Part shown: positions 4,257-24,881 of the stretch, piece after piece
How the letters are laid out: every line of letters begins with the position of its first letter
Position numbering within the stretch: the stretch's first letter is position 1
Source: a virus
Taxonomy: Duplodnaviria > Heunggongvirae > Uroviricota > Caudoviricetes
Strand: one strand, 5' to 3'
Length of the DNA: 26,249 bases
Virus record (IMG/VR): IMGVR_UViG_3300029517_000214
Location: 1-26,249 of that record
The notes under the pieces: model-generated
Told to the model about the DNA's origin: nothing
The model's input: only the letters and a program-made list of their open reading frames with translations
The model's database searches: none
Translations under genes and position numbers: made by a program

Positions 4257-4612
4257 TACTGGTAATCCCCTTCTTCACCGTGGAACTCAAGATCAACCGT
4301 GCCTTCTTCGGCATTATGGTTCGCTTCGCCGTGCAGCCAGGCAGACGACAGTACATAGACCTGACCGTTCGCCAGCTCGGCAGTGATGGTCATCTCATCA
4401 GACGAGGTGATTTTGCTCACCGGAAAATTCTTCGGCACCTTGAAGGTCCCTTTGACATAGGGCGCACGGTGAGTTTCCTTGCGGTCCACTGAACCGTCCA
4501 GGCCGATGATGTCATCATTGACCGTCCTGTTCATGGGCACCTCAATGCCGCCGGTCAGCGATAGCTGCTGACCGTCAATTTTGAAATAACAGGTTCCCCC
4601 GATACGGGCCAT
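4256..4612 (-). CDS. Tail tube protein (Mu gpM-like)
   Basis: 118-aa ORF translationally coupled to the sheath gene (shared coordinate 4612) and followed by chaperone and tape measure; size and position fit a contractile-tail tube. Confidence 0.65.
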   Translation of the reverse strand: MARIGGTCYFKIDGQQLSLTGGIEVPMNRTVNDDIIGLDGSVDRKETHRAPYVKGTFKVPKNFPVSKITSSDEMTITAELANGQVYVLSSAWLHGEANHNAEEGTVDLEFHGEEGDYQ

Positions 4613-6108
4613 TATGCAGACTCCTCTGAATACTGAAGACGGAACTGGTTAACCACGGCAAAGACACGCAACTGGTTAACATAGTCAGGCGGGAACAGCG
4701 TGTTCAGGCGGTTCGGATCGCTGGCATCACGCTCCACAACCAGGTACTGCTTAAACAGTTCGTAGTTTTCCACGATCCCCGCACGCTCAAGCTGACGGTA
4801 GGTTGCCAGCAGTTCCCCTTTGATCACCGCCGGGGTGACAATCGCCTGACCGGGACCAAAGCGGGTACCGTCACTGGCAAGCTTGTGACGCCCGTACTTA
4901 CTGGTAATGACGGATTTCAGTTTGCGCAGTACATACGCGCTGGTATGCAGTGTCTCACTGTCGAGGTAGCTGTTATCCGCAACCCCGTAAGCGTTTTTCC
5001 TGTACGTGGTGACATCACGCTGAATGCGCAGTACCCCGCTTTCGACATACGCCGTTGCCACGCCATGAGACAGCAGGGTCTGTTGTTCGGTCATCGTGAA
5101 CCGTTTCCCCTTCGGCGCAGGCAGCATACCCACCAGCTCACCGGTCTGCGTGGGACGTGCCGGATCGTTGCGAATAAACACCGCTGCGCGGGCGGTACGG
5201 CTTGCCGCCAGTTCGTCGGCAGGCGTCTGGGTCTCTTTTTCGTACCCCGCCAGGGTAATGTGCTGCTGGTTAAACTGGTCACCTGCGGTCACCAGTTCTG
5301 ACAGCGTGCCGATCTTTGCCGTATACACATGACCATACAGCTGACGCGCATAGCTCCAGCGACCGCTGGTATCGTTCATCTCGGTCACCAGCGTGTTAAC
5401 GGAGGCCGTGTCGTTGAACGGCAGGCCGATATAATCAAACGGCTCATCCGCCATTGCAGCCACCGCGCCGGTGAGAACCGGAGCACCCGTTCCGGCGGTA
5501 CCCGTCGCCACGGCAATCTGTACGCCCGCTGGCAGCACTTCGCCCCCACCAAAGCCGTAGTAATTGAGGCTGACAGGAATTTCATTCCCGCAAAGCCCCT
5601 TATGACGCGCGGTCAGTGTGACCACACCTGCCGAAGATGAAGCCGTAAACGGCAGGGCCGGAACGGCATTGATGGCATCTTTGATACTGCTGGCAATCGT
5701 CGTGACGTTATCGCCGTTGGTCACCGGAGCCTGCACGCGGGTACGTCCCACATAGACATTCACCGTGCCGCTTTCGGTTGCTTCCCCGGTCACCGTCAGC
5801 GTAACCGTTGCCGCCGCGCCTGTGGCTTCCGGAACGGCAATCACATACAGCTCACCAAACGGGTCGGTCTGGCGATAAGCCTCGACCATACGCGCCAGCT
5901 GACTTCCCGCACCACAAATCTGGCGTGCATAGTCTGCCGACGGCATCAGCACCAGACTGTTGGCAACAATCTCTGCACCGTTACTGGCATGACCAATCAG
6001 CAGCGATGCTCCGCTGTCCTGTGCAGTATTCGCCGCCTGGTTATCCATTTCCGCATAAAACAGCGGAACCAGCGTATTCGACGGAATGGTGTTAAAGCTT
6101 ATCGTCAT
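4612..6108 (-). CDS. Tail sheath protein (Mu gpL-like)
   Basis: 498-aa ORF immediately upstream of tube/chaperone/tape measure; length and context typical of a contractile sheath. Confidence 0.75.
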   Translation of the reverse strand: MTISFNTIPSNTLVPLFYAEMDNQAANTAQDSGASLLIGHASNGAEIVANSLVLMPSADYARQICGAGSQLARMVEAYRQTDPFGELYVIAVPEATGAAATVTLTVTGEATESGTVNVYVGRTRVQAPVTNGDNVTTIASSIKDAINAVPALPFTASSSAGVVTLTARHKGLCGNEIPVSLNYYGFGGGEVLPAGVQIAVATGTAGTGAPVLTGAVAAMADEPFDYIGLPFNDTASVNTLVTEMNDTSGRWSYARQLYGHVYTAKIGTLSELVTAGDQFNQQHITLAGYEKETQTPADELAASRTARAAVFIRNDPARPTQTGELVGMLPAPKGKRFTMTEQQTLLSHGVATAYVESGVLRIQRDVTTYRKNAYGVADNSYLDSETLHTSAYVLRKLKSVITSKYGRHKLASDGTRFGPGQAIVTPAVIKGELLATYRQLERAGIVENYELFKQYLVVERDASDPNRLNTLFPPDYVNQLRVFAVVNQFRLQYSEESA

Positions 6109-6252
6109 CGGTGTTCACCTTTTTATTCACGCGCCGGATATCACCAGCTGCTTCACGGCGCAGCCAGTAGTTGTTCTCGTCAACATTTCGCCCTTCGGCG
6201 GGCAAAAGGTCGCTGCGGGCAGGGTCAGGCACTGACCGCCCTTTAACAGGTT
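6082..6252 (-). CDS. Small hypothetical protein (below the ORF-track cutoff)
   Basis: Hand-translated 56 codons from ATG at 6252 (MFVKPVKGRSVPDPARSDLL...KKVNTDDDKL); fills the gap between 6271 and the sheath gene and overlaps the sheath start by 27 nt. Confidence 0.25.
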
Positions 6253-6270
6253 TCACAAACATGAGGATCC

Positions 6271-6831
6271 TCAGGAAGGAATGGTTATTTCTGTGTGATG
6301 TTCGATATCGCCGTCAGGCCCGTTACCGGGATCGAGATAATCAACATCAATCGCCAGCGTTTGCAGTTCATCCAGACTGTTCAGATCATCCTGCTGGCGG
6401 GTATCGTCTTCAGTCAGCTCGCTGATGACCGAAAAATCGAACTGATAAATCAGCTCATGACGATTCAGATCCAGCAGCGTGCCGCCGTCATAGGTAATCG
6501 GGTTACCGCACGCCTCCGGGTTCCAGCCCAGCAGAGCCTTAAAGAGCATCTGCCGGACATCGTCCACCACATCATACGAGGCAAACTGACCGCGCTCATC
6601 ACGCCCGTTACTCAGTATGACAATCACGGAGAAACCCTCTTTCAGCGCCTGCCAGTAGTCGGTCTGGCTTTTGTTTTCTCCCGGAGAATCATCACCCGGT
6701 ACAACATATGCCGCCGGGAGTTTCAGCTTTCCGACCTCCGGCAGATTTTTGAACTGGGCCGCACCTGCAACCCGGTTTTCAAAATACGGACAGCGGGCAC
6801 GCAGTGCAGCAATAACAGGCGTCAGTTTCAT
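6271..6831 (-). CDS. Putative tail completion/terminator-type protein (head-tail junction module)
   Basis: 186-aa ORF, ATGA-type coupling with the upstream gene at 6828..6831; call is by position between head-tail joining genes and the sheath. Confidence 0.4.
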   Translation of the reverse strand: MKLTPVIAALRARCPYFENRVAGAAQFKNLPEVGKLKLPAAYVVPGDDSPGENKSQTDYWQALKEGFSVIVILSNGRDERGQFASYDVVDDVRQMLFKALLGWNPEACGNPITYDGGTLLDLNRHELIYQFDFSVISELTEDDTRQQDDLNSLDELQTLAIDVDYLDPGNGPDGDIEHHTEITIPS

Positions 6832-7334
6832 CTGTGTCGTCGCTCCGGCTTCAGTGATTTACGCAATTCCCGCGCCAGAAAATAGCGTGTCCAGCTGCGG
6901 TTCTTTTCAAGCGTTTCCATCATGAAGTTATTACGTGGAGCCAGTCGCCAGCCGCTGCCACCGGATGCACCACGATGATGGCTGCGACGACGCTTTGCCC
7001 CTCGCCTCACTCCATAGAACAAAAAAGCCGGATAAAAATCACCAGTGATACGGCGGTTTCCCTCTCCATTACGCTGGTTAGGGGCTATACGTGCCATAAA
7101 ACCAGGGCGATGTTTACTGGCTCTGGGTACCATGTAACCAATCGAACGAGCCAGGCGTCCGGTCTGATAACCGGGGTTTTCACCCGGTGCCGACCGCGCA
7201 CGGCGCATCACCAGCCGACGGGCATCACGCATATGACGCTGACCAATCGTGACAAACGCCCGCCGGACACGGGCGCGGTTAAAGCGCATCTCCGTGGGCT
7301 GCTGAAAATCAACGTGCAAAAAGGAAGTCGCCAT
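6828..7334 (-). CDS. HK97 gp10-like tail component protein
   Basis: Arg-rich basic protein in the head-tail joining block. Start uncertain; an internal Met (MRFNRARV) near 7289 would remove the overlap with the upstream gene. Confidence 0.45.
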   Translation of the reverse strand: MATSFLHVDFQQPTEMRFNRARVRRAFVTIGQRHMRDARRLVMRRARSAPGENPGYQTGRLARSIGYMVPRASKHRPGFMARIAPNQRNGEGNRRITGDFYPAFLFYGVRRGAKRRRSHHRGASGGSGWRLAPRNNFMMETLEKNRSWTRYFLARELRKSLKPERRHR

Positions 7335-7719
7335 TGCTGCCTCCGTGACTCTGCCTACATTCGCCCAGCTCCGTACACTCCAGCAGCAGAAAGCGCCGCG
7401 CTCCGTTCAGATCGCGCTGACGTTTCACCCGGTACACACTGTCACCGCAGACCACCTCATAATCAGCAGTGATCCCCCGGCGGTAACGAATGGTGATGTA
7501 ATGGGTGATGGCGTCTCCGGTCTGCGCGGTTTCCTGCCAGGTGGTGGCACTGGTCTGGATAACCTTCGCCCATGTACTGAACGCAACCGGGTATTGAGGC
7601 TCCACGCCAAAGTTATCTGCGGGCATATCCACCCGCTGGCGGATCAGGACGCGTTTATTCAGTTCACCGGGGTCCGGCAGAATGTAGGTTGCGCTGGTCT
7701 GTGCCTGGCTAATTTTCAT
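7309..7719 (-). CDS. Head closure / head-tail joining protein
   Basis: 136-aa ORF with 4-nt overlap to the gp6-like connector gene; position typical of HK97-type head completion genes. Confidence 0.5.
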   Translation of the reverse strand: MKISQAQTSATYILPDPGELNKRVLIRQRVDMPADNFGVEPQYPVAFSTWAKVIQTSATTWQETAQTGDAITHYITIRYRRGITADYEVVCGDSVYRVKRQRDLNGARRFLLLECTELGECRQSHGGSNGDFLFAR

Positions 7720-8045
7720 TGCGGAAAGTACCTGTACGGGCTGACAAGCCAGCCAAAACTCTGCGGCATGTCGAGTTTCTCCACTTCCGTAACCGACGAG
7801 CGGTTTTCGTAAAAGTGGCTGATAAGCATCAGCATCCCAAGACGAATATCATCCGGCAGGTGCAGCCCGTCCGGATCGCTGTCCGGAATGGATTCATCCG
7901 GTGCATAGAGCTTCCGGTTCAGATACGTTTCCGTCCGCTTTTGCGCCGCACAGGCCAGCAGTTGCAGATGGCGGTCATCGGCATCGAAATCCTCATCCAG
8001 CCGGAGTTGGGCTTTAATCTCTTCCAGTGTCAGAAGCATTCTCAT
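7716..8045 (-). CDS. gp6-like head-tail connector protein
   Basis: N-terminus LTLEEIKAQLRLDEDFDADDRHLQLLACAAQKRTETYLNRKL matches the characteristic gp6-like connector pattern. Confidence 0.65.
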   Translation of the reverse strand: MRMLLTLEEIKAQLRLDEDFDADDRHLQLLACAAQKRTETYLNRKLYAPDESIPDSDPDGLHLPDDIRLGMLMLISHFYENRSSVTEVEKLDMPQSFGWLVSPYRYFPQ

Positions 8046-8241
8046 CCCTCTTTACTGGCCGTGGCTTTTTCTCTTTTGCCGCTTTACTGCTTTTTGCACT
8101 GGTTCCGCGCTCTGCTAACCCGGCCTGAAGTGCAATCTCCTGCACCCGGGCAGGAAGCGCCCCGTCGTCATACTCACCGGCCCTAATAACCTCAACACGC
8201 ATACCGTCCGGTGACCATTTAAGATCTTGTTTCAGGATCAT
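8014..8241 (-). CDS. Small hypothetical head-module protein
   Basis: 75-aa ORF between major capsid and connector genes with a purine-rich RBS-like stretch upstream of ATG 8241. Confidence 0.35.
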   Translation of the reverse strand: MILKQDLKWSPDGMRVEVIRAGEYDDGALPARVQEIALQAGLAERGTSAKSSKAAKEKKPRPVKRDENASDTGRD

Positions 8242-8264
8242 GATTCTTCACCCTTCAGAACAGG

Positions 8265-8282
8265 GGGCGCGGAACCGCGCCC
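8265..8282 (-). other. GC-rich hairpin just downstream of the major capsid gene
   Basis: GGGCGCGG / CCGCGCCC perfect 8-bp inverted repeat separated by AA, 9 nt after the capsid stop; no U-tract follows. Confidence 0.35.
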
Positions 8283-8290
8283 ATGAGCGA

Positions 8291-9496
8291 TTACTTCTCT
8301 GCAATCTTCAGCAGTTTGATGGCCTGCGAATCGACCAGCATTCCGCCGGTGCGCTTGGTGGTATAAAAACCGACAAACGGTTTATTGGTGTACGGGTCAC
8401 GCAGAATGCGGGTGCCGATACGGTCAACGATGGTGTAACCCCGTTTGAAGTTACCAAATGCGATGGCTTTCGCATCCGCAGCAATATCCGGCATCTGTTC
8501 GTTTTCAGCAATACCGTACCCCAGCAGAGAAGAAGGCTGCCCCAGTTCCAGCCCCGGACGCCACAGATAGTTACCCTCGTTGTCTTTCAACAGACGAATG
8601 GCAAACAGGCTGTTGTTGTTCATCATGAACTTCGCGCCAGTGCGGTGTGCCTTACGCAGCGTGTAAATCAGTTTGATAATGGCGTCTGCGGTCACCGCAG
8701 TCGCTTCGCCGGATACAATATGCTGAAGTTTGCCGAACGCCCGGACCTTATCGGTTTCATCAGTGGATTCATACGCCAGGAACCCTTTCGGCTTCTTGGT
8801 GCCATCGCCTGAGGTAAAGGCAATTTCTTCCTGTTCGGCAAATTCGGTTGCCAGCTCGCTGTTGATCCATGCTTCCACGTTGAAAAAGGCATCATCCAGC
8901 ATTTTCTGGGTGGCCTGCGGGTTACCGTAGATTTCCCCCATGAAAGGTTCAATCAGGCCCAGTTTTGAGGTGGCAGTCTGGGAGCGCGCGTCAGTCTCGC
9001 CAACCCATCCGGAAGCCGTGCCGCCCAGATTCACCAGTTTTTTGTAGTCGGAACCACCAATGGTGATCACCGTGGCTTCCTGACGCATCACCACTTCATC
9101 TTTCAGCAAGGTCAGAATGTTGCGATCCAGCGCTTCCGGCACGGCATAGCCGCCGTCTTCATCGGTGCCCACCTGTAATGCCTTGCGCTCCAGATCGCGC
9201 AGACCATCTTCACGGCCTTTACGCAGGAAGCCCACAAACGCTTCTTTATGCTCGGTGGTCAGTTTATTTTGCGCTCCACCAGCCGGACGTTTCAGCTCAA
9301 GCAGCTCTTTTTCAAGGTCGCTTTTGAGATTTTCCAGCTCGCTGAGTTTCCCGTTCAGGGTTTCCACCTGCCCGGCAAGCTTGCCTTTTTCCTGCTCAAT
9401 CGCATCCACGCGCTTGTCGTTCTTTGCTTTGAAGTCGTCAAACTTCTGCTGCAGCTCCTGCGCGACCTGTTCGACATCTTTAATATCAACCGCCAT
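8291..9496 (-). CDS. Major capsid protein, HK97 family
   Basis: 401 aa with coiled-coil N-terminal delta-like region followed by a capsid-fold region; AGGAG RBS 7 nt upstream; directly follows the prohead protease gene. Confidence 0.85.
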   Translation of the reverse strand: MAVDIKDVEQVAQELQQKFDDFKAKNDKRVDAIEQEKGKLAGQVETLNGKLSELENLKSDLEKELLELKRPAGGAQNKLTTEHKEAFVGFLRKGREDGLRDLERKALQVGTDEDGGYAVPEALDRNILTLLKDEVVMRQEATVITIGGSDYKKLVNLGGTASGWVGETDARSQTATSKLGLIEPFMGEIYGNPQATQKMLDDAFFNVEAWINSELATEFAEQEEIAFTSGDGTKKPKGFLAYESTDETDKVRAFGKLQHIVSGEATAVTADAIIKLIYTLRKAHRTGAKFMMNNNSLFAIRLLKDNEGNYLWRPGLELGQPSSLLGYGIAENEQMPDIAADAKAIAFGNFKRGYTIVDRIGTRILRDPYTNKPFVGFYTTKRTGGMLVDSQAIKLLKIAEK

Positions 9497-9510
9497 CGTA
9501 TTTCTCCTGA

Positions 9511-10161
9511 TTAGAAGTTCAGATTTTTCAGTGCATTCAGTGCAGAGCCCACATCCTCAGCGTCGCGCAGGGACAGTGCGCTATAGCCCCCGGCCATGAA
9601 TGCTTTGGCCTGGGTACGGGAGAGTCCGACATCACGCAGGACTCTTTCGATTTTTTTCTGTTCGGGGATTTCCCCGCGGGCCTGTGCGTTCTTGACGTCG
9701 CTGATCCGCGCCTCGTCGTTAGACGGGAACGTCACCAGGCTGACTTCCCAGAGGTCGATTTCTTTCAGCAGAAAGGCTTCTTTGCTCCGGTCGTATTCCC
9801 AGTCTTTCAGGACGTACCCAATAGAAAGGCCGGTTAACGAACCGGCCTTCATGTGTGCATGTGCGCGTTTTGCGAGGGGATCATCATCAATAAGCAACCG
9901 TCCCCTGACGTAAAGCCCGACATCGTCTTCCTTCATTTCGGTGTAAACACCGATGGGTTCATCCATGCGGTGCTGCCAGAGCAGCGCAGGTAACGCTTTT
10001 CTGTCACTCCACGCCCGCAGGGAAGCAGCAAATGCCCCGGACATCACCACATCATCGTGGCTGTCCTTTACACCAAAGACGGAGCCATACCCTTCAAACT
10101 CACCGGAGTCACTGACAGATTTCAGACTCAGCGGTACATCAAGACGTTGTTTCGTCTGCAT
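9511..10161 (-). CDS. Prohead protease (HK97 family)
   Basis: GYGSVFGVKDSHDDVVMSGAF region typical of HK97-type prohead proteases. Start placed at the internal Met 10161, which has an AAGGA RBS; the longest ORF starts at 10197. Confidence 0.8.
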   Translation of the reverse strand: MQTKQRLDVPLSLKSVSDSGEFEGYGSVFGVKDSHDDVVMSGAFAASLRAWSDRKALPALLWQHRMDEPIGVYTEMKEDDVGLYVRGRLLIDDDPLAKRAHAHMKAGSLTGLSIGYVLKDWEYDRSKEAFLLKEIDLWEVSLVTFPSNDEARISDVKNAQARGEIPEQKKIERVLRDVGLSRTQAKAFMAGGYSALSLRDAEDVGSALNALKNLNF

Positions 10162-11380
10162 TGGCGTTATCCTTCTGCTTACCGGCTTTACTGCCATCGG
10201 AGGGCTTCGTGGTCATGTTCATCGGTGTGAGATAGACATCACCACCGGGACGCGGATTCATATCTTCCAGGTCGCGGCAGTCATTGGGAGAGTAAATTCC
10301 CCAGTTGATCCCGGTGGCGTAGGCTTCAAAACGGGACTTCATATCCCCGCGCAGTAACGCCCCGGCGTTAAATTTGGCGTAATAAACGCCCTGCTTACTT
10401 TTTCGTACCAGTCCGGTGTTGATCCGCTGTTCGATGCGGGTCAGATACGGCACCAGTGAATAGTTGATAAATCCCAGCCCCAGCTCTTCGATATTGTTGA
10501 AGGTGGCGCGATCGGTGTTCTGCACCATGTGCAACGGCACCCGGAACAGACGACAGATTTCTTCAAGCTGAAACTTGCGGGTTTCCAGGAACTGGCTGTC
10601 CTCGGCGTTCAGCGCCATCGACTTCCAGTCCAGCCCCATCTCAAGGATCATCGGGCGGTGAGCATTGCCAAGCCCGGTGTGACGCTCCTCAAAATCTTTC
10701 TTCAGGCGCTCATAAGCCTGATCTGACAGCGTCTGCTCTGTACGCAACACACCCGACGTCACCGCGCCATTGCTGAACAGTCTGGCCCCGTGCTCTTCGG
10801 TCGCTGCCGCCAGCGATATTGCCTCGCGGGCATAGGCGATGGGATTCAGCCCCACCAGTCCGTCCAGCGTCAGCGTGCGCACATGCCAGATATCCTCCTG
10901 GCTCAGTACATCCGTGGAGCCATCCGGGAATGTGACCTGATAGACCGGCTCCCAGCTACTGTTAAGCTTCGGTACCACACAGCCGGGATCGACGGGCAGC
11001 AGTTCAGCCACTTCGCCAAATGCTTTCACTTTGTAGGCGTAAAAGTTTCCCCGCAGACACAGACAGGTGACCACCAGCTCCCAGAACTCCTGCGGCGTCA
11101 TATAGCCATTGGGATGCGTGGAGATCAGCTTATGCAGACGTTCGCCAGTGGCTCTCTGCTTCAGGCTGCCGTTCAGGTGATACAGGTTGCAGGGCAACAT
11201 CCCGACCGACTCCGCCAGCACCCTGACACAGGAAAAAACCGCCGTCAGTCGCATGGCCCGCTGGCTGCTGATCTGCTTTCCGGTATAGGTGTCGTAGGAC
11301 AACCCGATAGCATCCGCCAGCTCTGCTGGCGTGGTCACCGGTGCGTCACTTTTTCGTTGAAATAATCCCGAAAAGAACAC
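10139..11380 (-). CDS. Portal protein (HK97 family)
   Basis: 413-aa ORF between terminase large subunit and prohead protease; size and order are canonical. Confidence 0.8.
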   Translation of the reverse strand: MFFSGLFQRKSDAPVTTPAELADAIGLSYDTYTGKQISSQRAMRLTAVFSCVRVLAESVGMLPCNLYHLNGSLKQRATGERLHKLISTHPNGYMTPQEFWELVVTCLCLRGNFYAYKVKAFGEVAELLPVDPGCVVPKLNSSWEPVYQVTFPDGSTDVLSQEDIWHVRTLTLDGLVGLNPIAYAREAISLAAATEEHGARLFSNGAVTSGVLRTEQTLSDQAYERLKKDFEERHTGLGNAHRPMILEMGLDWKSMALNAEDSQFLETRKFQLEEICRLFRVPLHMVQNTDRATFNNIEELGLGFINYSLVPYLTRIEQRINTGLVRKSKQGVYYAKFNAGALLRGDMKSRFEAYATGINWGIYSPNDCRDLEDMNPRPGGDVYLTPMNMTTKPSDGSKAGKQKDNANADETTS

Positions 11381-11562
11381 TATTTACCTCCGCCGACAGA
11401 CGACTGTGTACGGTCGAGATATCGCGCCACCAGCCACGACCAGAACAGGCACAACGCCCCGGCAACAACAAACCCCGCCGGGGGATAAATCAGCCAGGCA
11501 CCATACGCCAGCAAAAGCGCCCCCAGCACGCCCACCAGAGGCGCGAGAATCAGCATGATCAT
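11380..11562 (-). CDS. Small membrane protein
   Basis: 60 aa with two hydrophobic helices; its stop overlaps the portal start (TGATG-type coupling) and it sits 12 nt after the TerL stop. Confidence 0.4.
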
Positions 11563-11573
11563 AATTACCTCAG

Positions 11574-13307
11574 TTAAAGCGAGCGGATCCCATAGGACTC
11601 AATGTGGTCAGACAGCGTGTCTTCTTTCTCGTACAGCATGGCTCTGCCAACCGCCATAATCAGCGCAACTGCACCATCGATTTTGTTTTCCGCCTGCTCT
11701 TTGACGGGCTTCACCACATCATCGTTACCCGGAATGGTTTTGCCGACCACGTTGCCGATACACCAGGTCATGATGGGATTGCCATCATGATGAAAGCGCC
11801 CCGATTCAATTGCCGCTTCCAGCTCTTTCATCGGGTCGGACATGTTGGTGTAGTTCTGAATGATAGTGATGGGGTTCAGGTCTTCATCAGCAAGGTCATG
11901 TGACAACCCGGTCGCCCCGAAGGGGTCGATGGGTGACTCACTGACCGGGCTGATTTTGTTCGCCGCTTTGGCCTCCTCGAGGATGTAGCGATAATCCACC
12001 TCCGCACCATCGGTAACGGTCAGAACGCCCATTTCCACCCATTTCTGAAAGCGTTCGGCTGTCCGTCGATCTTCATTTTTCTCGACGCTGTACACCGTGT
12101 CATACGGTACCCAGAAACGCGGGGCCACACTGTAGTAATGCGTTTTACCGTCAATCTCGCGGGTATAAAGTCGCGCCATACTGTTCATATCCAGCTTACG
12201 CGCCAGGTCAAAGGCCAGAATGCACGGCTGCCCCTCGAACTGCTCAAGGGTCAGTGATTTATCCTCGCAGCTCTGCCAGCTCACCAGATTGAAATACGCC
12301 GAACGCGCCGACACCCAGATATTGAGGTGTTTTGTTTTAAAGACGTTTGCCAGACGGGCGTTATTTTTCGCACGCTGCTGCTGACTTAACAAAAATTCGC
12401 GATAAACCGACACGCCAATATTTGGATTGGCTTTTTCCAGCACCTGCGGGTCGGTCCAGTCATCGCCTTCGTCAACGGTATAGATGATCCCGAACAGTTC
12501 ATCGTTGGGTACCGACCCGTTGAGCATCTCGATAACTTCCCGCCGCTTGTCGTAGCACGGCCCCTCAATGTTGTACCCGGCAGTAGTAATGGCCCACATC
12601 AGTGGCTGACGTCGCGCCCCCATCCCGGTAAGCATCGTGGTGTAAAGCGCATCGGTGGCGTGCTCGTGATATTCATCCACCACCGCACAGTGGGGTGATG
12701 AACCATCACCGGGGTTACCGATCAGCGGTTCAAAACGCGCACCATCCTCCGGACGGTTCATGTTTGAGGCGTTAACCTCAATCCCGAACGCTTCCGTCAG
12801 CATGGGTGTGCGTTTACACATCAGTCTTGCCGGACGAAAGACTTCCCATGCCTGTTTCTCCGTCGTGGCACCGGAATACACTTCCGCGCCGAACTCGTTA
12901 TCACAGGCAAAACAATACAGGGCGACACCGGCAGAGATTGCCGATTTGCCGTTCTTACGGGGGATTTCGGTATACACCTCACGGAAGCGGCGCAGCCGGG
13001 AGCCTTTATTGACCCAGCCAAACGCGCAGCAGATCACAAAGAGCTGCCACAGCTCCAGCGTGATGGGCATCCTCTTAAATGCCCACTCACCCTTGGTGTG
13101 CGGCAACAGCTGAATAAATTTAGCGGCCCGTTCAGCCAGGTCCTTGTCGAAGCGGTAACGAAACGACTTACTTTTTTCCGCCATCAGGTCATCAAGATGC
13201 CGCTGGCAGGCCTGAATCACAAACTGGCAGGCCACAATCTTTCCGCGCACGACATCACGGGCATACTGATTGGCAGCATTTACGTTGGGGTAAGATTTCC
13301 GGCTCAT
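11574..13307 (-). CDS. Terminase large subunit
   Basis: 577 aa with Walker A-like EIPRKNGKS and a C-terminal nuclease region; ATGA overlap with the small subunit gene. Confidence 0.9.
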
Positions 13308-13807
13308 GATTCGATGATTTTCAGAAACGGGTTAGTGGCTTTCTTCTTCCCCGCCAGGCCAATCAGACGCTGGCGGCTGCTGGGGTCGAGTCCGAGCATT
13401 GCCCCCGTACTGCTCATCTCGGACTCCTGTTCTTTTTTGGCGGTCAGCTCCGGATTTTTGACCATACCGCCCATTGCACCGGTGATGGTGTTGCCCTGTC
13501 TGGCAATATTTTTCACGGCACGTCGCCAGAACTCATAGGCCACACACCACCGCTCAAGCACTGCGAGGTCAGTCACGCACAGCAGGCCCTGACCGCAGAG
13601 TTCTTTAGTTGTCAGTTGCCACATGATCGTGGCGAGAGGGAGATCTTCTTCAGCGAACCACTCCGGTGGCTCAACACCTTTGATGGGCGTAAAAACAGGT
13701 TCATCTTTATTCAGGGCTCGCTTGCCGGGGTTTCCGGCCAGCGCCTTGCGCGCCGTTGGCTTGGGGCGACGCCCGGAACGCCCCGCCGTTCCAGCCATAT
13801 GCGGCAC
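13304..13807 (-). CDS. Terminase small subunit (P27 family)
   Basis: 167-aa basic N-terminus ([22 protein letters not shown]) typical of P27-family small subunits, immediately upstream of TerL. Confidence 0.75.
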
Positions 13808-13924
13808 TCCTGGTTAAATTTCATTTTTCGCGGGTATAAAAAAACGATGGGGCGGGCAGTCCGGAAGGCGCGCGGTTGCAAAGATTCGACCTCCCCCTCC
13901 CCTGGCTGATGATGACATCAATTC

Positions 13925-14275
13925 TCACCTGAACCGCTCACGCGCGGTCTTCACTGCGTGACACGACCAGCACAGACTCTCAAGGTTGCTGTCTTCATCA
14001 GTGCCGCCGTGAGCCTTCGCCTTGAGGTGGTCCACGCAGGACGCTTGCTTCACAACTCCCTGCCGAAGATGGTTCTGACATAACCCTTTGTCGCGCTTTA
14101 GTATCCGCTCCCGGATGACTTCCCACTTTGTTCCATATCCGCGCTGCTGCCGTGATTGACCTGGCTTGTAGGATTTCCAGCCCTCACCTTTATGATTTTC
14201 GCAGTAGCCTGACGGATCTGTAGTGGTAGAACGGCAGCCGCGAACACGGCAGGCTTTTGGGATTCGTGGCGGCAT
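13925..14275 (-). CDS. HNH endonuclease (terminase-associated)
   Basis: Cys-rich N-terminus and C-terminal CVDHLKAKAHGGTDEDSNLESLCWSCHAVKT HNH motif; located just upstream of terS as in HK97-like packaging modules. Confidence 0.8.
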   Translation of the reverse strand: MPPRIPKACRVRGCRSTTTDPSGYCENHKGEGWKSYKPGQSRQQRGYGTKWEVIRERILKRDKGLCQNHLRQGVVKQASCVDHLKAKAHGGTDEDSNLESLCWSCHAVKTARERFR

Positions 14276-14373
14276 ATGGAAAACTCCGGATAGAAATTAT
14301 GATAGAAACCATGTTATTTAATAGCGTTTCAATCCGTTAAGTAACAATGGTTATGCTCGTAAAGGACGCCCTG

Positions 14374-14763
14374 ATGACAAATAACTACATGAATGATTTC
14401 CTCAAATACTCACAGCCATATGTTCCAAAGGACTACAATCTTGCAAATGAATTTCATAGACGCCTTATATGCTGGATAAATGATTTTCACCGTGAACTTG
14501 AAGAAGAGTATGAGGTAGGAGGACAACTAGCTAGCTTTGGTAAAAACATTGAATTTCATTTCACAGACATAAGCTACTGGAATCCATCATTAATTTCTTT
14601 CATTGGTACTCTGGAGGATGGCAGTCCTGTAGAACTTGTTCAGCATGTATCTCAAATAAATGTCCTGCTAATCCGAAAAAAACGCTTATGCTTAGAGACC
14701 CCTAAAAGACCGATTGGGTTTGCTGATTGGGGTGAATACGACTCCTTTAAAGGAGATAATTGA
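14374..14763 (+). CDS. Hypothetical protein, opposite-strand moron at the bor position (possibly YbcV/YdfO-like)
   Basis: AT-rich plus-strand ORF between the spanin genes and the packaging module. Start assigned to the Met with an AAGGA RBS 8 nt upstream (MTNNYMNDF...); the longest ORF starts at 14347. Family guess is from memory of position and size only. Confidence 0.55.
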   Translation: MTNNYMNDFLKYSQPYVPKDYNLANEFHRRLICWINDFHRELEEEYEVGGQLASFGKNIEFHFTDISYWNPSLISFIGTLEDGSPVELVQHVSQINVLLIRKKRLCLETPKRPIGFADWGEYDSFKGDN

Positions 14764-14770
14764 TAACTTT

Positions 14771-14795
14771 ATTGCGGGCGATAATTGCCCGCAAT
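14771..14795. terminator. Hairpin between convergent genes (possible bidirectional terminator)
   Basis: ATTGCGGGC / GCCCGCAAT 9-bp stem with 7-nt loop, between the stop of 14374..14763 (+) and the stop of 14806..15024 (-); flanking U-tract is weak. Confidence 0.4.
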
Positions 14796-14805
14796 CTCGT
14801 TTGCC

Positions 14806-15024
14806 TCATAACTGGCTAATACAGTTGCGCTGTACTGCTTTGTTATGTGCCAGAATATCCCGCTTCGTAAGCTTATCCAGCACTTCAATGTCCTGACCTG
14901 TGAGGTAGATGATTCTTACCCAGTCACAGGCCGTGTCCGTTACTTCAGGTTTTGCGGGTAAAGTTTTCGCGCAACTCACGGTCAACATCGTCATCAGGTA
15001 GATGATTAACAGTCTGCTGTACAT
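14806..15024 (-). CDS. Putative outer-membrane spanin lipoprotein (o-spanin)
   Basis: 72 aa with signal peptide and lipobox-like LTVSC plus two further cysteines; overlaps the upstream gene by 80 nt in another frame. Confidence 0.45.
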   Translation of the reverse strand: MYSRLLIIYLMTMLTVSCAKTLPAKPEVTDTACDWVRIIYLTGQDIEVLDKLTKRDILAHNKAVQRNCISQL

Positions 15025-15214
15025 CCCAGGCTCCTTTTGTTGTCTCTACCCTACGTTCTGCAACGGCTTCAGTAGCAGCTGCACGTTCTTCAGTGCGTTG
15101 CTGGTCCGCTTTTGTTTCTGCGATACTTGTACCGCGTGATTTACCCAGACCAAAAGCACCTGCAATTGCAGCCAGCACAGCAACAACCAGGCCGATAATC
15201 ATTTCAAGTCCCAT
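14945..15214 (-). CDS. Putative inner-membrane spanin (i-spanin)
   Basis: N-terminal TM helix (MGLEMIIGLVVAVLAAIAGAF) then a charged Ala/Glu/Arg-rich segment; start at 15214 with GAGG RBS, just after the endolysin stop. Confidence 0.45.
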   Translation of the reverse strand: MGLEMIIGLVVAVLAAIAGAFGLGKSRGTSIAETKADQQRTEERAAATEAVAERRVETTKGAWDVQQTVNHLPDDDVDRELRENFTRKT

Positions 15215-15221
15215 AGTGACC

Positions 15222-15836
15222 TCATACCAGTGCGGCTTTTGCTTTGGCGTAACGTTCACGGCGGTCTTTAATGCCATTCTGTCCGCCGTTAATAATCTGC
15301 GTTACACGTTCCACGTCACCCGAATACATCAAGCAACCGCGTAACGTGAAGTACCACGCCGCCGAACGGGCCGCATGTCGCTCCTGCGTTAGCAATTCTG
15401 GTGTATTGACAAGGTCAAGTTTCAGCGCCGCACCACATTTGGTGTAGTTCTCACGGCCAGTAATTTGAAGCAGGCCACGACCGCGATATTTCCAGCCGTC
15501 ACCCTGGCTGTTATTCCCCATGCGGTCACCGTAAACCAGATTGGCTATTTGCGGCTGGTGAGCGACCTGTTTACCATCGACACGCCCCAGCATTTCGCAC
15601 TGGTACGGCGTCAGACGCTTACCAAAGGTTTTCTTCAGCCCTTCAACCGAGTAGTTAAAACTCTCTGCCAGCGAAGTAAATCCTGCAGACTCATGCCCGA
15701 CTTGTGCAATGAACATGGCCTGATCATTAACTGCTGTAATACCAAACTCTTTCATTGCCGCATCAATGTGCGGAAACCAGCGTGCAGAAACATCGGCGCT
15801 GATACCAGCCGCCTGCTGAAATTGTGATTGGTTCAT
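15222..15836 (-). CDS. Endolysin, probably glycoside hydrolase family 19 (chitinase-like)
   Basis: 204 aa directly downstream of two membrane-protein genes; FIAQVGHESAGF resembles the GH19 catalytic-region motif. Family assignment is from memory. Confidence 0.7.
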   Translation of the reverse strand: MNQSQFQQAAGISADVSARWFPHIDAAMKEFGITAVNDQAMFIAQVGHESAGFTSLAESFNYSVEGLKKTFGKRLTPYQCEMLGRVDGKQVAHQPQIANLVYGDRMGNNSQGDGWKYRGRGLLQITGRENYTKCGAALKLDLVNTPELLTQERHAARSAAWYFTLRGCLMYSGDVERVTQIINGGQNGIKDRRERYAKAKAALV

Positions 15837-16117
15837 TAGTGCCTCAGATGGTCAACCAGACGTGCCACATTGCCTCTGACGGCGACCAGCACGGACAGGA
15901 AAATAATGTTGGCCACGATAGTGGCCCACGATGAATAAGGGTAGATACCGCACAGATACGCCAGCGGTACGGCGCTATAAATGACCGTAAGCAGCCACGC
16001 TAAGCGAGATATCCACGGTCGATGTCTGGAGTCGCCACGACGATAAAACATCAGAGTAATAACAACACAAGCACATAACAGCGCATTTATAGTTGCTGTC
16101 GGGTCATTTAGCTCCAC
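15836..16117 (-). CDS. Holin-like small membrane protein (holin or antiholin)
   Basis: 93 aa with about three predicted TM helices, immediately upstream of the endolysin gene. Confidence 0.5.
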   Translation of the reverse strand: MELNDPTATINALLCACVVITLMFYRRGDSRHRPWISRLAWLLTVIYSAVPLAYLCGIYPYSSWATIVANIIFLSVLVAVRGNVARLVDHLRH

Positions 16118-16490
16118 CTGAACCTCCCCGGCGCGTTATGAGCGCCACCAGCGAGCCGATATCCTGATTATTCAGGAACGTCAGGATTTTAACGGCTAAA
16201 GCAGAGACGATTACGGCACCAATAGCATCCAGAGGTTTATCACTGTATCCGGTCAAGTTCGCCAGCTTGGAGCCAACCAACCCAGAGCAAAGGATCCCGG
16301 CAATATATGACACGATAAAATATGCTAGTCGGCGCGATGCACTCAGATCTGCTGCTGTTGCTATGTAGAATACAGCCCCTGCAAATGCGCCAAATACAAC
16401 GCCGTAATCAGTTCCGGTCAGCAGTCCATAAATACTAGCGCCCGTTAGGGCTCCACCAGCTAACCCTGTGCCGGAAATCGGATCGGACAT
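16104..16490 (-). CDS. Putative holin
   Basis: Gly/Ala-rich hydrophobic helices with a charged C-terminus (RRGGSGGAK); start taken at ATG 16490 with GAGGTGG RBS rather than the longer ORF start at 16556. Confidence 0.5.
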   Translation of the reverse strand: MSDPISGTGLAGGALTGASIYGLLTGTDYGVVFGAFAGAVFYIATAADLSASRRLAYFIVSYIAGILCSGLVGSKLANLTGYSDKPLDAIGAVIVSALAVKILTFLNNQDIGSLVALITRRGGSGGAK

Positions 16491-16598
16491 TAGCCACCTC
16501 TTATTGCAGTGAGTCCTCTCAGAAATAGAAATGAGAGGAATAAAAAAGGCCACCATTTGGCAGCCATAGAATTGATGTAATTATAACTAATTCATTAA

Positions 16599-17405
16599 CT
16601 ATTTCTTAATGATGCTATTTAACATTTCTAATGCAAAAAGCAACATGGAGCTAATAAAATACAATATAACCGCACTGGCAATCGCTCCAATTATAGCCTG
16701 GACACTCCAGTGAAAGTAATTTTTACCATTAATAACAAACTTAACACTAGGAAACAAAAAGTCGATAAGCTTAATTATTAATGGAATAGCAAAGCTCCAT
16801 AAGTTCGAAAACAAAATAAAGATACAAATAAATGATAAAGCAAATGCACCATCGATTGATAGTTTTGGCGCCAGTTTTGAGGCTGTCCATAAGCTAAGCA
16901 AAAAGCCAACTGTCACACCTGAAATCTGGATACTTAACATAGTCCAAGCTGTTCTAAAAAATCTAAATTTATTTTTGCACTTGTTAAGTAAATCCTGAAT
17001 CGTAATCCATAACGAGTCAACCCACTCATTATCTTCCGATGCTACAATCATTGTGCTGCTATTTGAATTCCTCTCATCAATTCGTAGCTCCATCCAAGAT
17101 CCATTCATCCTGTTAGACTGTCGACTTTGATAAGTTTCAATAGTAAAAATTATTTGATCAATCCTAGTGGCCTGTCTAAAGTATTTCACAAGCTCACCGA
17201 TAGAATCAACTTTATACCCCTTACCATCGAACAAAATAAAAAAAACACATTGAGCACAAACTTCCCTACTTTCCTTTTGAGCTTGCTCATTCATTTTAAC
17301 GCAGCGTTCGACAATTGCCGTGCTTAAGCTAATCAAGCTATCTTCATTTATAGAAACACCTGAAATATTCTTGCTTCTGTAAAAATATGACACTTTCGAT
17401 TCCAC
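16599..17405 (-). CDS. Hypothetical membrane protein: ~165-aa soluble N-terminal domain plus ~3 C-terminal TM helices
   Basis: 268-aa ORF in a strongly AT-rich island between Q/tR' and the holin; I recognise no family. Confidence 0.6.
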   Translation of the reverse strand: MESKVSYFYRSKNISGVSINEDSLISLSTAIVERCVKMNEQAQKESREVCAQCVFFILFDGKGYKVDSIGELVKYFRQATRIDQIIFTIETYQSRQSNRMNGSWMELRIDERNSNSSTMIVASEDNEWVDSLWITIQDLLNKCKNKFRFFRTAWTMLSIQISGVTVGFLLSLWTASKLAPKLSIDGAFALSFICIFILFSNLWSFAIPLIIKLIDFLFPSVKFVINGKNYFHWSVQAIIGAIASAVILYFISSMLLFALEMLNSIIKK

Positions 17406-17602
17406 TCCGCACCAGTCTCGATTTAGCGCAGGTTAACATAACCACTTCATTGGTAGAAGAAAAGAACTCTTCTTGTCAGAAAGCTACTGTGATATCCCTA
17501 AACCTGCAGATGATACAGAACAAAATTTAAGCATCAATTGTAGGCGATTTTAAATTCACTTTACAGTTTAGGCTGCCAATTGGCAGCCGATTGAAGCAGA
17601 AA

Positions 17603-17872
17603 TCAATGAGTGCTCATCGATGAATTTTTTTCAGCGCCAATCTCACTCAAAAAAGCAAAACCTTTTGACGTTATCTCATTAGCAATCAATCCACCTTCGG
17701 CAGATTTGCTTCGTATAACATCGATAAAACCTATATCAGCAAGATCTGAAATAGCAAAGTTAACCTCTTTTGCTGAGAGATGAGGTAATGATGCAGCCTG
17801 AATTCTAGAATCCTTTGGCTGCAATTCATTCACTCGACGTAGTATTTCAAGATGGATAGAGGTCAGTTTCAT
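17603..17872 (-). CDS. Small hypothetical protein, possible winged-helix DNA-binding fold
   Basis: 89-aa ORF in the same AT-rich island, same strand and upstream of the membrane-protein gene; helix pattern HLEILRRVNEL...EVNFAISDLADIGFI suggests a wHTH. Confidence 0.5.
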   Translation of the reverse strand: MKLTSIHLEILRRVNELQPKDSRIQAASLPHLSAKEVNFAISDLADIGFIDVIRSKSAEGGLIANEITSKGFAFLSEIGAEKNSSMSTH

Positions 17873-17940
17873 AATGTTCTCCTGTTTTTAATGTTGTTTT
17901 ACAGAAAACATTATAACACATTGATTTTGATGTAGATTGA

Positions 17941-17980
17941 ATAGAAAAAAACCATAAAAAAACCTCGCAATAGCGAGGTC
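17941..17980 (-). terminator. Candidate tR' terminator of the late leader transcript
   Basis: Minus strand ACCTCGC-TATT-GCGAGGT hairpin (plus 17963..17980) followed by TTTTTTTATGGTTTTTTTC, about 100 nt after the Q stop codon. Confidence 0.5.
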
Positions 17981-18086
17981 GTAAAAATTGTTCAACGATA
18001 GATACACAAGCCCCATCGTTGAGAAAATCTTATCCATATTTTTTGAGAAATACAAGTATTATGTCGTTATCTTCGGCGAAAATCGC

Positions 18087-18839
18087 TTATCTCGTCACCC
18101 TTCTCAATTGTGCTTCAGCGTAAGCTTCCTCCTGCCAGCACTTTGTAACCAGTTTATCAATGACATCTGCATATCCTTTGTACCACTGATAATCCGTCAG
18201 GTCTGGTACCAGCTTCTGGACATGAAGCCGCGCCAGTGTGGTTGGTAAACGGCTAAACCGGTTTCCACTGCAACGCCCACAAATCTTATAAACAGGCGTG
18301 CCATGAAGCCGGGTTCTTTTTTCATCCAGGACAATACCTTTACCCTTACACCCTCTGCACGCGGTGCTGACTTCTCCCTTACCATGGCAATGCTGACATA
18401 GTTCCTTCACCCACTCTTCCTTGATAACAGATTCCCCGCTTCTGGAGTGTTTCACCACTTCGCGCAATACATTATGAAATCCAGTACCAGCACAATGCTC
18501 ACAGCGAGCCTTACTTGCCGCAGACCTGGAATAATCAGCAAAGGCAAAATTCACAAGGTAAGGGATGATCTGTAACCGGGTTTCTTCACTCAATTTGTTC
18601 AATGTCGGGTTATCCAGTGCCATCGCGTAATTGAGCAGACCTTCAATCGCAAACTGAGGATCCTGAACACCAACTTTTGCCAGGAATAAGGCAAACCCAA
18701 GCGGTGCTTTCGACTGCACCATCCCCTGCGCAGCCATCACATCCGTAATCGTTAAACCACCTGAGCCTGTCGCCGGTGCGTCATCGCTCAATTTTGGAGA
18801 TTTTGGGGAGTAATATTTTGGTAAGGCTTCAAGGTTCAT
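18087..18839 (-). CDS. Late-gene antitermination protein Q
   Basis: Cys-rich zinc-binding segments (CEHCAGTG, CQHCHGKGE, CRGCKGKG, CGRCSG). Start at MNLEALPKYY with GGAGAA RBS, which avoids overlap with the upstream gene. Positioned upstream of the lysis genes. Confidence 0.75.
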   Translation of the reverse strand: MNLEALPKYYSPKSPKLSDDAPATGSGGLTITDVMAAQGMVQSKAPLGFALFLAKVGVQDPQFAIEGLLNYAMALDNPTLNKLSEETRLQIIPYLVNFAFADYSRSAASKARCEHCAGTGFHNVLREVVKHSRSGESVIKEEWVKELCQHCHGKGEVSTACRGCKGKGIVLDEKRTRLHGTPVYKICGRCSGNRFSRLPTTLARLHVQKLVPDLTDYQWYKGYADVIDKLVTKCWQEEAYAEAQLRRVTR

Positions 18840-18852
18840 GCTCGTTCTCCAC

Positions 18853-19838
18853 TTACGCCAGCACGCCAATTGCCAGCGCACGATCGATAAAACGAAATAT
18901 CAGCTCCAACTGGGAGCCATACTTTTCTTCAAATGCCACGGTATCCGCATGCAGATCGTCGTGATGCTTTCTGCACAAAGGCAACACAAAGAGGTCATGC
19001 GCTTTTGTACCCATTCCCCCCTGACCGTCGCCTATCAGGTGGTGGGGATCATCAGCAAGCTTTCCACAACATGCACACGGCTGTGTCTTAACCCAGCGCG
19101 TGTACTTTTCATTAGCCCAGCGGCGACGTTTTGGGCGTAACATAAAAGACTCCGGCGACTCCGGATCCACTTTCAGCGCCAGCACCTTTTTCGCCTTATC
19201 CTGGATGATGCTGGTGGCAGGAACCGAAGGCACAAGGTCACTTTCCCGGGTGACAGACGGCACAACAGGCTTCGGTAATCTCAGTGCCTTACGGGCTGCA
19301 CTTTCCGGTAAGGCATCCGCCAGGTCATTACGAACCAGCCACCAGCACAGTTCCGGCATTGTCACAACGTGACTATCATCAAAACCGAGATCCCGACGCA
19401 CAACAGACAATACCCAGCGGGCACAGTTATCCGTTGCCATTGATTCCAGCCGTTCCGTGAACTGATCGCGCAACTGGTTATCGCAGTGCCAGCACAGACG
19501 GATTGCGCCCGGCGCGTGTCGCATTGTGGTCATGTTCTCGCTGTGCCAGTCGGANNNNNNNNNNNNNNNNNNNNNNNNNAGCTTTCAAGACATTCCACCC
19601 CACCAGCACGACGAATCACTGCCTCATTACGGAACACGGCCCGAACGACAGGATCATCCGCCAGCGGTTGTGATGCCGCGGGAACGGCACCACTGGCGAA
19701 AGATGAATAATGCTCCGGCTCAGGCTCCAGCAGTACACGCCCCTGCATAAACAGGGGCATCAGCTCTGAACCTGGTCTGAACAATACGATCCCCATACGC
19801 GGGGCAATTTCAGGGGTCAGTAGTGCTCTCACGGTCAC
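18853..19838 (-). CDS. DUF968-like (YdfU-like) protein, interrupted by an assembly gap
   Basis: Two ORF pieces (19530..19838 and 18853..19533) flank the N-run. The C-terminal part has a Cys/His-rich region (QPCACCGKLADDPHHL...CRKHHDDLH). Position directly upstream of Q matches ydfU next to quuQ in Qin. True length and frame across the gap are unknown. Confidence 0.5.
19556..19579. other. Assembly gap (24 N)
   Basis: Run of n characters in the sequence. Confidence 0.99.
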
Positions 19839-23406: not shown

Positions 23407-23754
23407 GTGGAAGAAGAAATCTTCACTCGTGAAGAGGCTGCGTCGTATCTGAAGGTAGACAAAGGCACTATCACGCAGTGGATACGAAGTGGACGACTTC
23501 AAGCCGCAAAGATAAATCCAGATAAACCTAAAAGCCCATATCGCATTTGCAAGTCAGACTGCATTGCGGCGCTTAAGTCTGTGAGACACAATGGCGCGGT
23601 GAATGCGGTTGATGTGCAGGAGGTTAAAGCATGTCAATCAAACTGCGCGGTGGCACATGGCACTGCGATTTCGTCGCGCCAGATGGATCAAGAGTTAGAC
23701 GCTCTCTTGAAACATCGGACAAGAGGCAAGCGCAAGAACTTCACGATCGTCTGA
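23407..23754 (+). CDS. xis: Excisionase-like DNA-binding protein (Xis)
   Basis: GTG start with GGAG RBS; N-terminus FTREEAASYLKVDKGTITQWIRSGRLQAAKI fits excisionase/AlpA-type HTH; immediately upstream of and overlapping int. True 3' end uncertain. Confidence 0.6.
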   Translation: MEEEIFTREEAASYLKVDKGTITQWIRSGRLQAAKINPDKPKSPYRICKSDCIAALKSVRHNGAVNAVDVQEVKACQSNCAVAHGTAISSRQMDQELDALLKHRTRGKRKNFTIV

Positions 23755-24805: not shown

Positions 24806-24881
24806 TGGTGCCGATAATAGGAGTCGAACCTACGACCTTCGCATTACGAATGCGCTGCTCTACCAACTGAGCTATATCGGC
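24806..24881 (-). tRNA. thrW: tRNA-Thr (anticodon CGT), thrW-type
   Basis: Hand-folded cloverleaf: acceptor GCCGATA/TATCGGC, D arm GCTC/GAGC, anticodon stem GCGCA/TGCGC with loop TTCGTAA, T arm GTAGG/CCTAT, encoded CCA. Confidence 0.9.

Follow-up and report, generated by a model that had tools for sequence, protein, structure and literature searches.

Why does one small gene run against the late region of a prophage, in an AT-rich gap between the lysis and packaging genes, and what might its product do for the element that carries it? The gene lies within a 26,249-nucleotide stretch of DNA (IMG/VR record IMGVR_UViG_3300029517_000214), the whole of which we refer to as the window. The window is an e14/SfI/SfII-like E. 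coli prophage with a contractile tail, a P27-type packaging module headed by an HNH gene, and lambdoid Q and lysis genes. The interval 14276-14805 is the entire gap (530 bp) from the start of the HNH gene to the stop of the o-spanin gene, and its GC content of 0.381, compared with 0.51 for the window, places it at the 7th percentile among all segments of that length. An initial annotation of this DNA had described an opposite-strand gene in an AT-rich island here and had called it the only plus-strand gene of the late region. Both descriptions hold. The gene occupies 14374-14763 on the plus strand, and in a RefSeq prophage that is 98% identical over window positions 2019-19554 it is the sole plus-strand coding sequence from the baseplate genes to Q. 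The gene and its neighbours are arranged as follows:

11574-13307, minus strand: large terminase (Pfam and PHROGs).
13304-13807, minus strand: small terminase, P27-type (Pfam and PHROGs).
13925-14275, minus strand: HNH endonuclease that heads the packaging module (PF01844, E 8.3e-9; phrog_144, E 1e-38).
14276-14373, plus strand: AT-rich gap of 98 bp before the DUF6173 gene, common to the divergent HNH start.
14347-14373, plus strand: nine additional N-terminal codons if translation began at the first in-frame ATG, which is probably not the case.
14374-14763, plus strand: DUF6173 coding sequence, 129 aa (Pfam, PHROGs, RefSeq and a selection test).
14771-14795, either strand: hairpin with a perfect 9-bp stem and a 7-nt loop (inverted repeat and folding).
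14806-15024, minus strand: o-spanin with the lipobox LTVSC, overlapping the i-spanin gene (phrog_1275, E 9.5e-29).
14945-15277, minus strand: i-spanin (phrog_1026, E 6.5e-32).
15222-15836, minus strand: GH19 endolysin (Pfam and PHROGs).

The open reading frame at 14347-14763 (+) encodes 138 aa when counted from its first ATG and 129 aa when counted from the ATG at 14374. A good ribosome-binding site (AAAGGA, 14362-14367) stands seven bases before the latter, conservation among homologues begins only around residue 17 of the 129-aa form in an alignment of 40 sequences, and the RefSeq (PGAP) annotation also starts the gene at this position. These three observations make ATG 14374 the likely start. 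The 129-aa protein matches the Pfam family DUF6173 (PF19670) with an E-value of 3.8e-21 and a score of 75.8 bits against a gathering cut-off of 27, over positions 16-101 of the 102 in the model, and it matches phrog_3306, a PHROGs family of unknown function, with an E-value of 2.4e-17. The identical protein WP_000184049.1 is already named 'DUF6173 family protein' in RefSeq. When the gene is compared with eight homologues, non-synonymous differences amount to 0.11-0.29 per site and synonymous differences are saturated at 0.67-0.92, which indicates strong purifying selection. The interval 14374-14763 is a real and strongly constrained DUF6173 gene. That it might instead be a chance open reading frame within an AT-rich spacer would agree with the promoter scan, which found none in the upstream gap, but the strength of the Pfam match, the hundreds of homologues, the good ribosome-binding site and a non-synonymous divergence that stays low while synonymous sites are saturated leave this idea with virtually no probability.

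DUF6173 is the sole Pfam match of the protein at E-values up to 1, and no recognisable catalytic domain was found, in keeping with the earlier remark that the product has no recognisable catalytic motif. A scan against NCBIfam gave no match, and the PADLOC 2.0 defence models gave none at E-values up to 1. The protein has a mass of 15.2 kDa, a pI of 5.14 and a net charge of about -6. Its N terminus, MTNNYMNDFLKYSQPYVPKDY, is polar and its first Cys is residue 33. A signal peptide, a lipobox and a membrane segment are all lacking (the highest 19-residue Kyte-Doolittle mean is 0.74), which argues that the DUF6173 protein is cytoplasmic, unlike Bor.

Bor enters the comparison through the initial annotation, which placed the gene at the bor position of lambda. 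We take lambda bor to be the positional equivalent of the DUF6173 slot, between the spanins and the packaging genes. Both genes follow the spanin genes and precede cos and the terminase genes, both are antisense to the late operon, and both are small cargo genes dispensable for lytic growth. The Bor protein is a lipoprotein of the outer membrane that has a signal peptide and a lipobox, and lysogenic expression has been shown for bor, whereas for the DUF6173 gene we infer it. The lambda gene is reportedly the subject of work by Barondess and Beckwith from 1990 and 1995. The slot and the antisense orientation therefore agree with the annotated position, but the protein itself is not Bor-like: with no lipobox and a first Cys only at residue 33, it gives no match to the Bor family at E-values up to 1. 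The annotation had also suggested membership of the YbcV/YdfO (DUF1398) group of DLP12 and Qin, presumably small, functionally uncharacterised proteins whose genes lie close to the lysis genes of these defective lambdoid prophages. A Pfam search at E-values up to 1 returned no DUF1398, and the DUF6173 protein has no sequence relationship to this group. A lysogenic-conversion gene of the Bor-like or YbcV/YdfO kind is thus extremely unlikely, since the agreement with lambda bor is limited to position and orientation, the Pfam scan refutes membership of both families, and the protein shows none of the three features of export or membrane insertion listed above. The interpretation offered by the initial annotation is, as a whole, partly supported.

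Its observations are confirmed except for the regulatory signals that they implied. The 9-bp-stem hairpin described as common to the convergent o-spanin gene is present, with arms ATTGCGGGC and GCCCGCAAT, and is placed between the convergent stop codons at 14761-14763 and 14806-14808. It folds at -18 kcal/mol on each strand, with z-scores of -4.2 and -4.1 relative to shuffled sequences. A U tract is absent on both strands, and the terminator scan did not call the hairpin. It probably defines the 3' terminus of the plus-strand transcript or makes it more stable and, because the minus strand has no U tract, it should not block Q-modified late transcription. Upstream, the 98-bp gap contains no consensus-like sigma-70 promoter in a scan of 13800-15300. 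The single promoter match in the scanned region (14075-14104) lies within the HNH gene, about 270 bp upstream, and one match where 1.7 are expected is no more than chance. Strong hairpins also occur 3' of the stop codon in other DUF6173 cassettes, where 32% of 128 distinct downstream 60-mers have z-scores below -2, with no sequence conservation among them. We found no promoter or terminator sequence shared between cassettes, as DNA similarity ends at the coding region, and similarity between the cassette in the window and the others does not extend upstream of about 14416.

An Rfam scan of the whole window returned nothing except tRNA. A tRNA-Thr (CGT) gene at 24806-24881 (-) is separated by 15 bp from the end of a 386-aa open reading frame at 23631-24791 (+) that probably encodes an integrase. 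This arrangement suggests integration of the prophage at tRNA-Thr, and the part of the window to the right of about 24900 is probably host DNA.

Comparison with sister prophages of E. coli defines the segment in which the DUF6173 gene is carried:

14278-14820, no strand: exchangeable cargo segment between conserved HNH and spanin sequence (sister-prophage comparison).

Similarity to the sister prophages ends at 14277 on the HNH side and returns at 14819-14821 on the spanin side. The slot holds two hypothetical genes on the same strand in strain D2, and three genes on the late-operon strand, including one for a Rha regulator, in strain VE-T9. We further note that the region 14200-14900 is complete in 32 of 5,426 complete E. 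coli genomes, while 446 have a partial or better match. In the viral contig IMGVR_UViG_2547132281_000013, the DUF6173 gene is split at the equivalent of window positions 14500-14510 by an IS66-family element (ISCro1, 2.7 kb; locus L124, 5305-8000) with an 11-bp flanking duplication, and E. coli TW14425 carries an identical ISCro1 junction. The existence of sisters without the gene, together with a copy split by an IS66 element, indicates that the gene is dispensable for the prophage. Its presence is patchy between conserved genes and its base composition is unlike that of its flanks. Related E. coli prophages hold other genes in exactly this slot, which bears out the earlier view of a moron at the spanin/packaging junction. 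On these observations the DUF6173 gene is, with high confidence, exchangeable cargo in the lysis-to-packaging slot and is not required by the phage. Other cargo at the same junction in sister E. coli and Yersinia prophages consists of Rha, KilA-N, ANT family and hypothetical genes; these belong to other families and lie on the late-operon strand, whereas DUF6173 is antisense in Proteobacteria.

The family represented by this cargo gene is broad and conserved. A word-indexed search returned 281 relatives in Enterobacterales, Pseudomonas, Pseudoalteromonas, Aeromonas and others, with 55-82% identity among the 120 listed, and a full profile search returned 1,490 clusters at 50% identity, 1,013 of them with E-values up to 1e-10. 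A scan of one genome per species found the family in 80 species at 38-76% identity to the query, in phyla that include Proteobacteria, Bacillota, Cyanobacteria, Acidobacteriota, Bacteroidota, Planctomycetota and Spirochaetes. The E. coli prophage and Bacillota proteins share 43-50% identity. The 40-sequence alignment has 32 invariant columns, all of them present in the query, and the invariant motifs include YWNPSLISF, QHVSQ and PKRPIGF. Family members are acidic, with a median pI of about 5.2 and 95% below 6.5. The domain invariably occupies the C-terminal part of the protein, preceded by an N terminus that varies between members. In two of ten longer proteins scanned, an XRE-type helix-turn-helix and a repetitive helical linker stand ahead of the domain, fusions that fit a ligand-sensing or oligomerising module, and none of the ten carries an enzyme domain fused to DUF6173. 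The GC content of the gene is below that of its flanks in 88% of 160 DUF6173 loci. The family occurs in 3 of 50,697 isolated phage records and in 11 of 72,556 plasmid records. A literature search with the family name and accessions found no paper mentioning DUF6173 in the library searched; a paper on Gifsy defence genes concerns an unrelated ATPase in the immunity region.

The placement of the gene in the window recurs in other phages. In lambdoid prophages of Klebsiella and Yersinia, which have different lysis and terminase genes, DUF6173 is again antisense, just upstream of the small terminase and downstream of lysis or KilA-N/ANT/Rha-type genes. In the Klebsiella prophage another cargo gene on the opposite strand, a member of the Rap1a (type VI immunity) family, adjoins a Mu-F-like head gene (locus L006, 1046-1390). 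When 1,167 neighbouring open reading frames from 164 loci were clustered, the commonest neighbours were small terminases, namely phrog_51 (adjacent, 14 loci) and phrog_1206 (13 loci), followed by the large terminase, portal, spanin and endolysin. A large terminase is detectable in 32 loci, a set biased by the 8-kb flanks within which a terminase could be revealed, and in all 32 of them DUF6173 lies no more than four open reading frames upstream of the first packaging gene. It adjoins that gene in 27 of the 32, and in 26 of those 27 it has the opposite orientation. This pattern spans three unrelated small-terminase families (phrog_51, phrog_1206 and P27/Terminase_4). DUF6173 also precedes an HNH-small-large terminase module, in the same orientation and at a distance of zero to four open reading frames, in Lysinibacillus, Bacillus thuringiensis, Niallia, Peribacillus and a KSB1 genome. 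The synteny crosses phyla, and in the following loci, from the KSB1 genome and three Bacillaceae prophages, DUF6173 stands immediately before the module or one gene away:

L091, 8001-11129: co-oriented packaging-edge locus.
L176, 7001-10281: co-oriented packaging-edge locus.
L178, 5380-8454: co-oriented packaging-edge locus.
L184, 6001-9952: co-oriented packaging-edge locus.

The HNH-terminase module of KSB1 and Peribacillus is detectably homologous to that of the window. The recurrence of DUF6173 at the packaging edge across phyla is the strongest unexplained observation of this analysis.

One way to account for it is that the position is functional and that DUF6173 is an accessory of the packaging module, acting with the HNH-terminase genes, for example in late or packaging timing or in cos/pac handling. 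The consistent placement upstream of the first packaging gene, the three unrelated small-terminase families and the co-orientation in Bacillota and KSB1 are all in favour of such a role. However, sister E. coli prophages share the packaging genes without DUF6173, one copy is disrupted by an insertion sequence, and in Proteobacteria the gene runs opposite to the packaging operon. Most family members lie far from packaging genes, some of them beside transposases or on plasmids, and the 8-kb flanks again bias which loci are able to show a terminase. We consider a packaging role unlikely and retain the reading of DUF6173 as exchangeable cargo.

Antisense placement would suit expression of this cargo from its own signals in the lysogen, where the late operon is silent. 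The gene is antisense in most of the terminase loci described above; it is antisense within the early lytic operon of the Clostridioides phage phiCDKH02, where it shares the direction of the lysogeny genes; and it runs against the surrounding replication genes in a Brevibacillus prophage. All three count for lysogenic expression. From this orientation in several phage types, and from the rarity of the family in lytic phages, we infer that the DUF6173 gene is expressed independently in the lysogen.

Other phage contexts are found away from the packaging edge. DUF6173 is located at the integrase end of P2/HP1-like prophages of Pseudoalteromonas. P2 carries the cargo genes old, tin and fun(Z) near its attachment site, and the likeness to these genes extends to Methylophaga, in which DUF6173 follows a full-length OLD-family nuclease gene; they differ in that there is no sequence relationship between DUF6173 and the P2 genes. 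We know of no exclusion phenotype for DUF6173. Among the 80 species-level loci, phage structural genes occur within 8 kb in four and an integrase in seven, both of which are lower bounds because the profiles are not sensitive.

Outside phages, several DUF6173 genes are found beside defence genes. The OLD-family nuclease of Methylophaga (AAA_15 ATPase and TOPRIM, 652 aa) is encoded directly upstream of DUF6173. In related marine contigs just the TOPRIM part is left, immediately after a Tn3-family transposase gene, and a transposon may thus have truncated the nuclease gene:

L036, 5883-7841, and L018-L022: OLD-family nuclease loci in Methylophaga and related marine contigs.

In Pseudomonas oryzihabitans, DUF6173 lies between a resolvase gene and a Pycsar system. 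Other neighbours are a CBASS cyclase with a 4TM effector, a SLATT effector and a type IIG restriction enzyme. Also nearby in some genomes are a large SIR2 protein, type I restriction genes, PDC-M18B and others. On small Acinetobacter plasmids, DUF6173 adjoins a BrnT/BrnA or an SMI1/KNR4 gene. Defence neighbours make up a raw share of about one tenth of the contexts. Many neighbours are housekeeping genes, such as those for release factor 2, RuvB, urease and RecJ, and no conserved partner gene emerged from the 1,167 clustered neighbours or from a Pfam census of 98 direct neighbours in 80 species.

The defence neighbours raise the question of whether DUF6173 acts against immunity. An anti-defence protein would shield its mobile element on entry into a new host, by binding or sequestering an immune signal (for instance a cyclic nucleotide) or by imitating nucleic acid. 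This fits a small, acidic protein without an enzyme domain, a gene at the end of the phage genome by cos, carriage by several kinds of mobile element, and the cyclic-nucleotide systems that adjoin it in four unrelated genomes (Pycsar, CBASS, SLATT and a cyclase-like gene). It is harder to reconcile with the low counts among plasmids and among isolated phages, which are mostly lytic, and with an orientation against lytic operons that fits lysogenic rather than early lytic expression. We found no structural match to known sponges, and an inhibitor is not predicted to adjoin a host chromosomal defence system. An anti-defence function is, in our estimate, improbable.

The same small, acidic, cytoplasmic product could also be an orphan immunity protein, which would neutralise a cytoplasm-acting toxin delivered by a competitor and thereby protect the lysogen. 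On the Acinetobacter plasmid pM164-3.2, DUF6173 follows the SMI1/KNR4 (SUKH) immunity-type gene, and the Klebsiella prophage with DUF6173 has the opposite-strand Rap1a-family gene mentioned above. Yet no toxin gene (Rhs, CdiA, LXG or PAAR) is adjacent in about 100 distinct contexts, and the identity between phyla, at 43-50%, is far above that usual for immunity proteins. We therefore regard this function as very unlikely.

A different indication of function comes from the predicted structure. An AlphaFold2 model based on the 40-sequence alignment (pLDDT 84.7, pTM 0.72) has a disordered N terminus, a helix at residues 23-41, strands at 46-54, 57-69, 73-79, 85-91 and 97-103, a conserved loop, and a helix at 119-127. 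The predicted fold is an N-terminal helix followed by five bent strands that form an Sm-like small barrel. In this model, strand 2 closes with Y68-W69 and leads into a loop that carries the invariant N70-P71 before strand 3; the invariant Q90-H91 end strand 4, with Q94 in the following loop. We take the Y68-W69-N70-P71 and Q90-H91-Q94 loops to correspond to the nucleotide-pocket loops of Sm and Hfq, a correspondence that we treat as a lead. The likeness to Sm/LSm/Hfq consists of the helix-plus-five-bent-strand fold of the predicted model; no significant structural or sequence similarity to these proteins was found, and hhalign against E. coli Hfq gave a probability of 2%. Pfam returned no LSM or WYL match at E-values up to 1, the comparison with WYL gave no clear structural similarity, and solved structures searched by sequence returned nothing meaningful. 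DUF6173 differs from the Sm/LSm/Hfq and WYL barrels in its extra conserved PKRPIGF loop, its C-terminal helix and its acidity.

The explanation that we favour combines these elements. The DUF6173 gene would be a cargo gene expressed in the lysogen, and its soluble, acidic, cytoplasmic 15-kDa product would work through binding, not catalysis, and probably as an oligomer. It may bind RNA, single-stranded DNA or a nucleotide, and the benefit to the carrier would lie in conflicts with other mobile elements, for example in the exclusion of, or defence against, an incoming phage. We give this explanation as a whole a probability of roughly one half. Judged separately, binding of nucleic acid or nucleotides is a possibility suggested by the modelled fold that we hold to be less than probable, and a role in exclusion or defence, suggested by the genomic contexts, is a tentative proposal of somewhat lower standing.

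Repeated capture by unrelated elements (lambdoid prophages, P2/HP1-like prophages, a Tn3 neighbour and plasmids) counts for the cargo and conflict reading, and the defence genes directly adjacent in several genomes count for its conflict component. The recurrent 3' hairpins in other cassettes also count for the explanation. On the other side, an acidic protein is not an obvious binder of nucleic acids, and conservation as high as that of DUF6173 is unusual for defence proteins. The promoter scan without a match in the upstream gap, the PADLOC scan without a match, the 2% probability with Hfq, a family that no paper found mentions, the many housekeeping neighbours and the few phage or integrase contexts likewise weigh against the explanation, and the link to the packaging edge across phyla could mean that the role is phage-specific.

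A more far-reaching version of the favoured explanation would make DUF6173 a single-gene conflict module of several phyla that has gone unrecognised, in which a barrel of the Sm/WYL-like type would bind a nucleic-acid or nucleotide signal. Phages of Proteobacteria and Bacillota would keep this module at the packaging edge, and for prophages, other islands and plasmids it would serve to keep out rivals or to weaken host immunity. We put forward this version, which draws on the predicted model, as speculative and doubtful.

Within the window, the DUF6173 gene is an ordinary cargo gene in a known variable slot and is already named in RefSeq. The wider value lies in the family, with about 1,500 clusters, conserved sequence, carriage by several kinds of mobile element and a recurrent phage position, and no paper found on it. 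Because of this breadth, conservation, recurrent position and lack of study, DUF6173 makes a sensible target for experiments. Being small, soluble and encoded by a single gene, it is cheap to test, and a clear phenotype would annotate thousands of genes and would explain the retention of DUF6173 on the packaging side across phyla.

The window contains other AT-rich islands. The largest, at 16231-18401 with a GC content of 0.32-0.35, lies between the Q antiterminator and holin genes, which is the position of the Shiga-toxin genes in Stx phages. Its 268-aa open reading frame at 16599-17405 (-) has no Pfam match, and its 89-aa open reading frame at 17603-17872 (-) has a weak, sub-threshold match to DUF2513. 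A 176-aa open reading frame at 1391-1921 (-), also with no Pfam match, sits in an AT-rich zone (1131-2271) between the DNA-circularisation gene (1-1329) and the tape-measure gene (2013-3845). The match to the RefSeq prophage ends left of 2019, and the interval 1391-1921 therefore resembles a further cargo slot, located among the tail genes.
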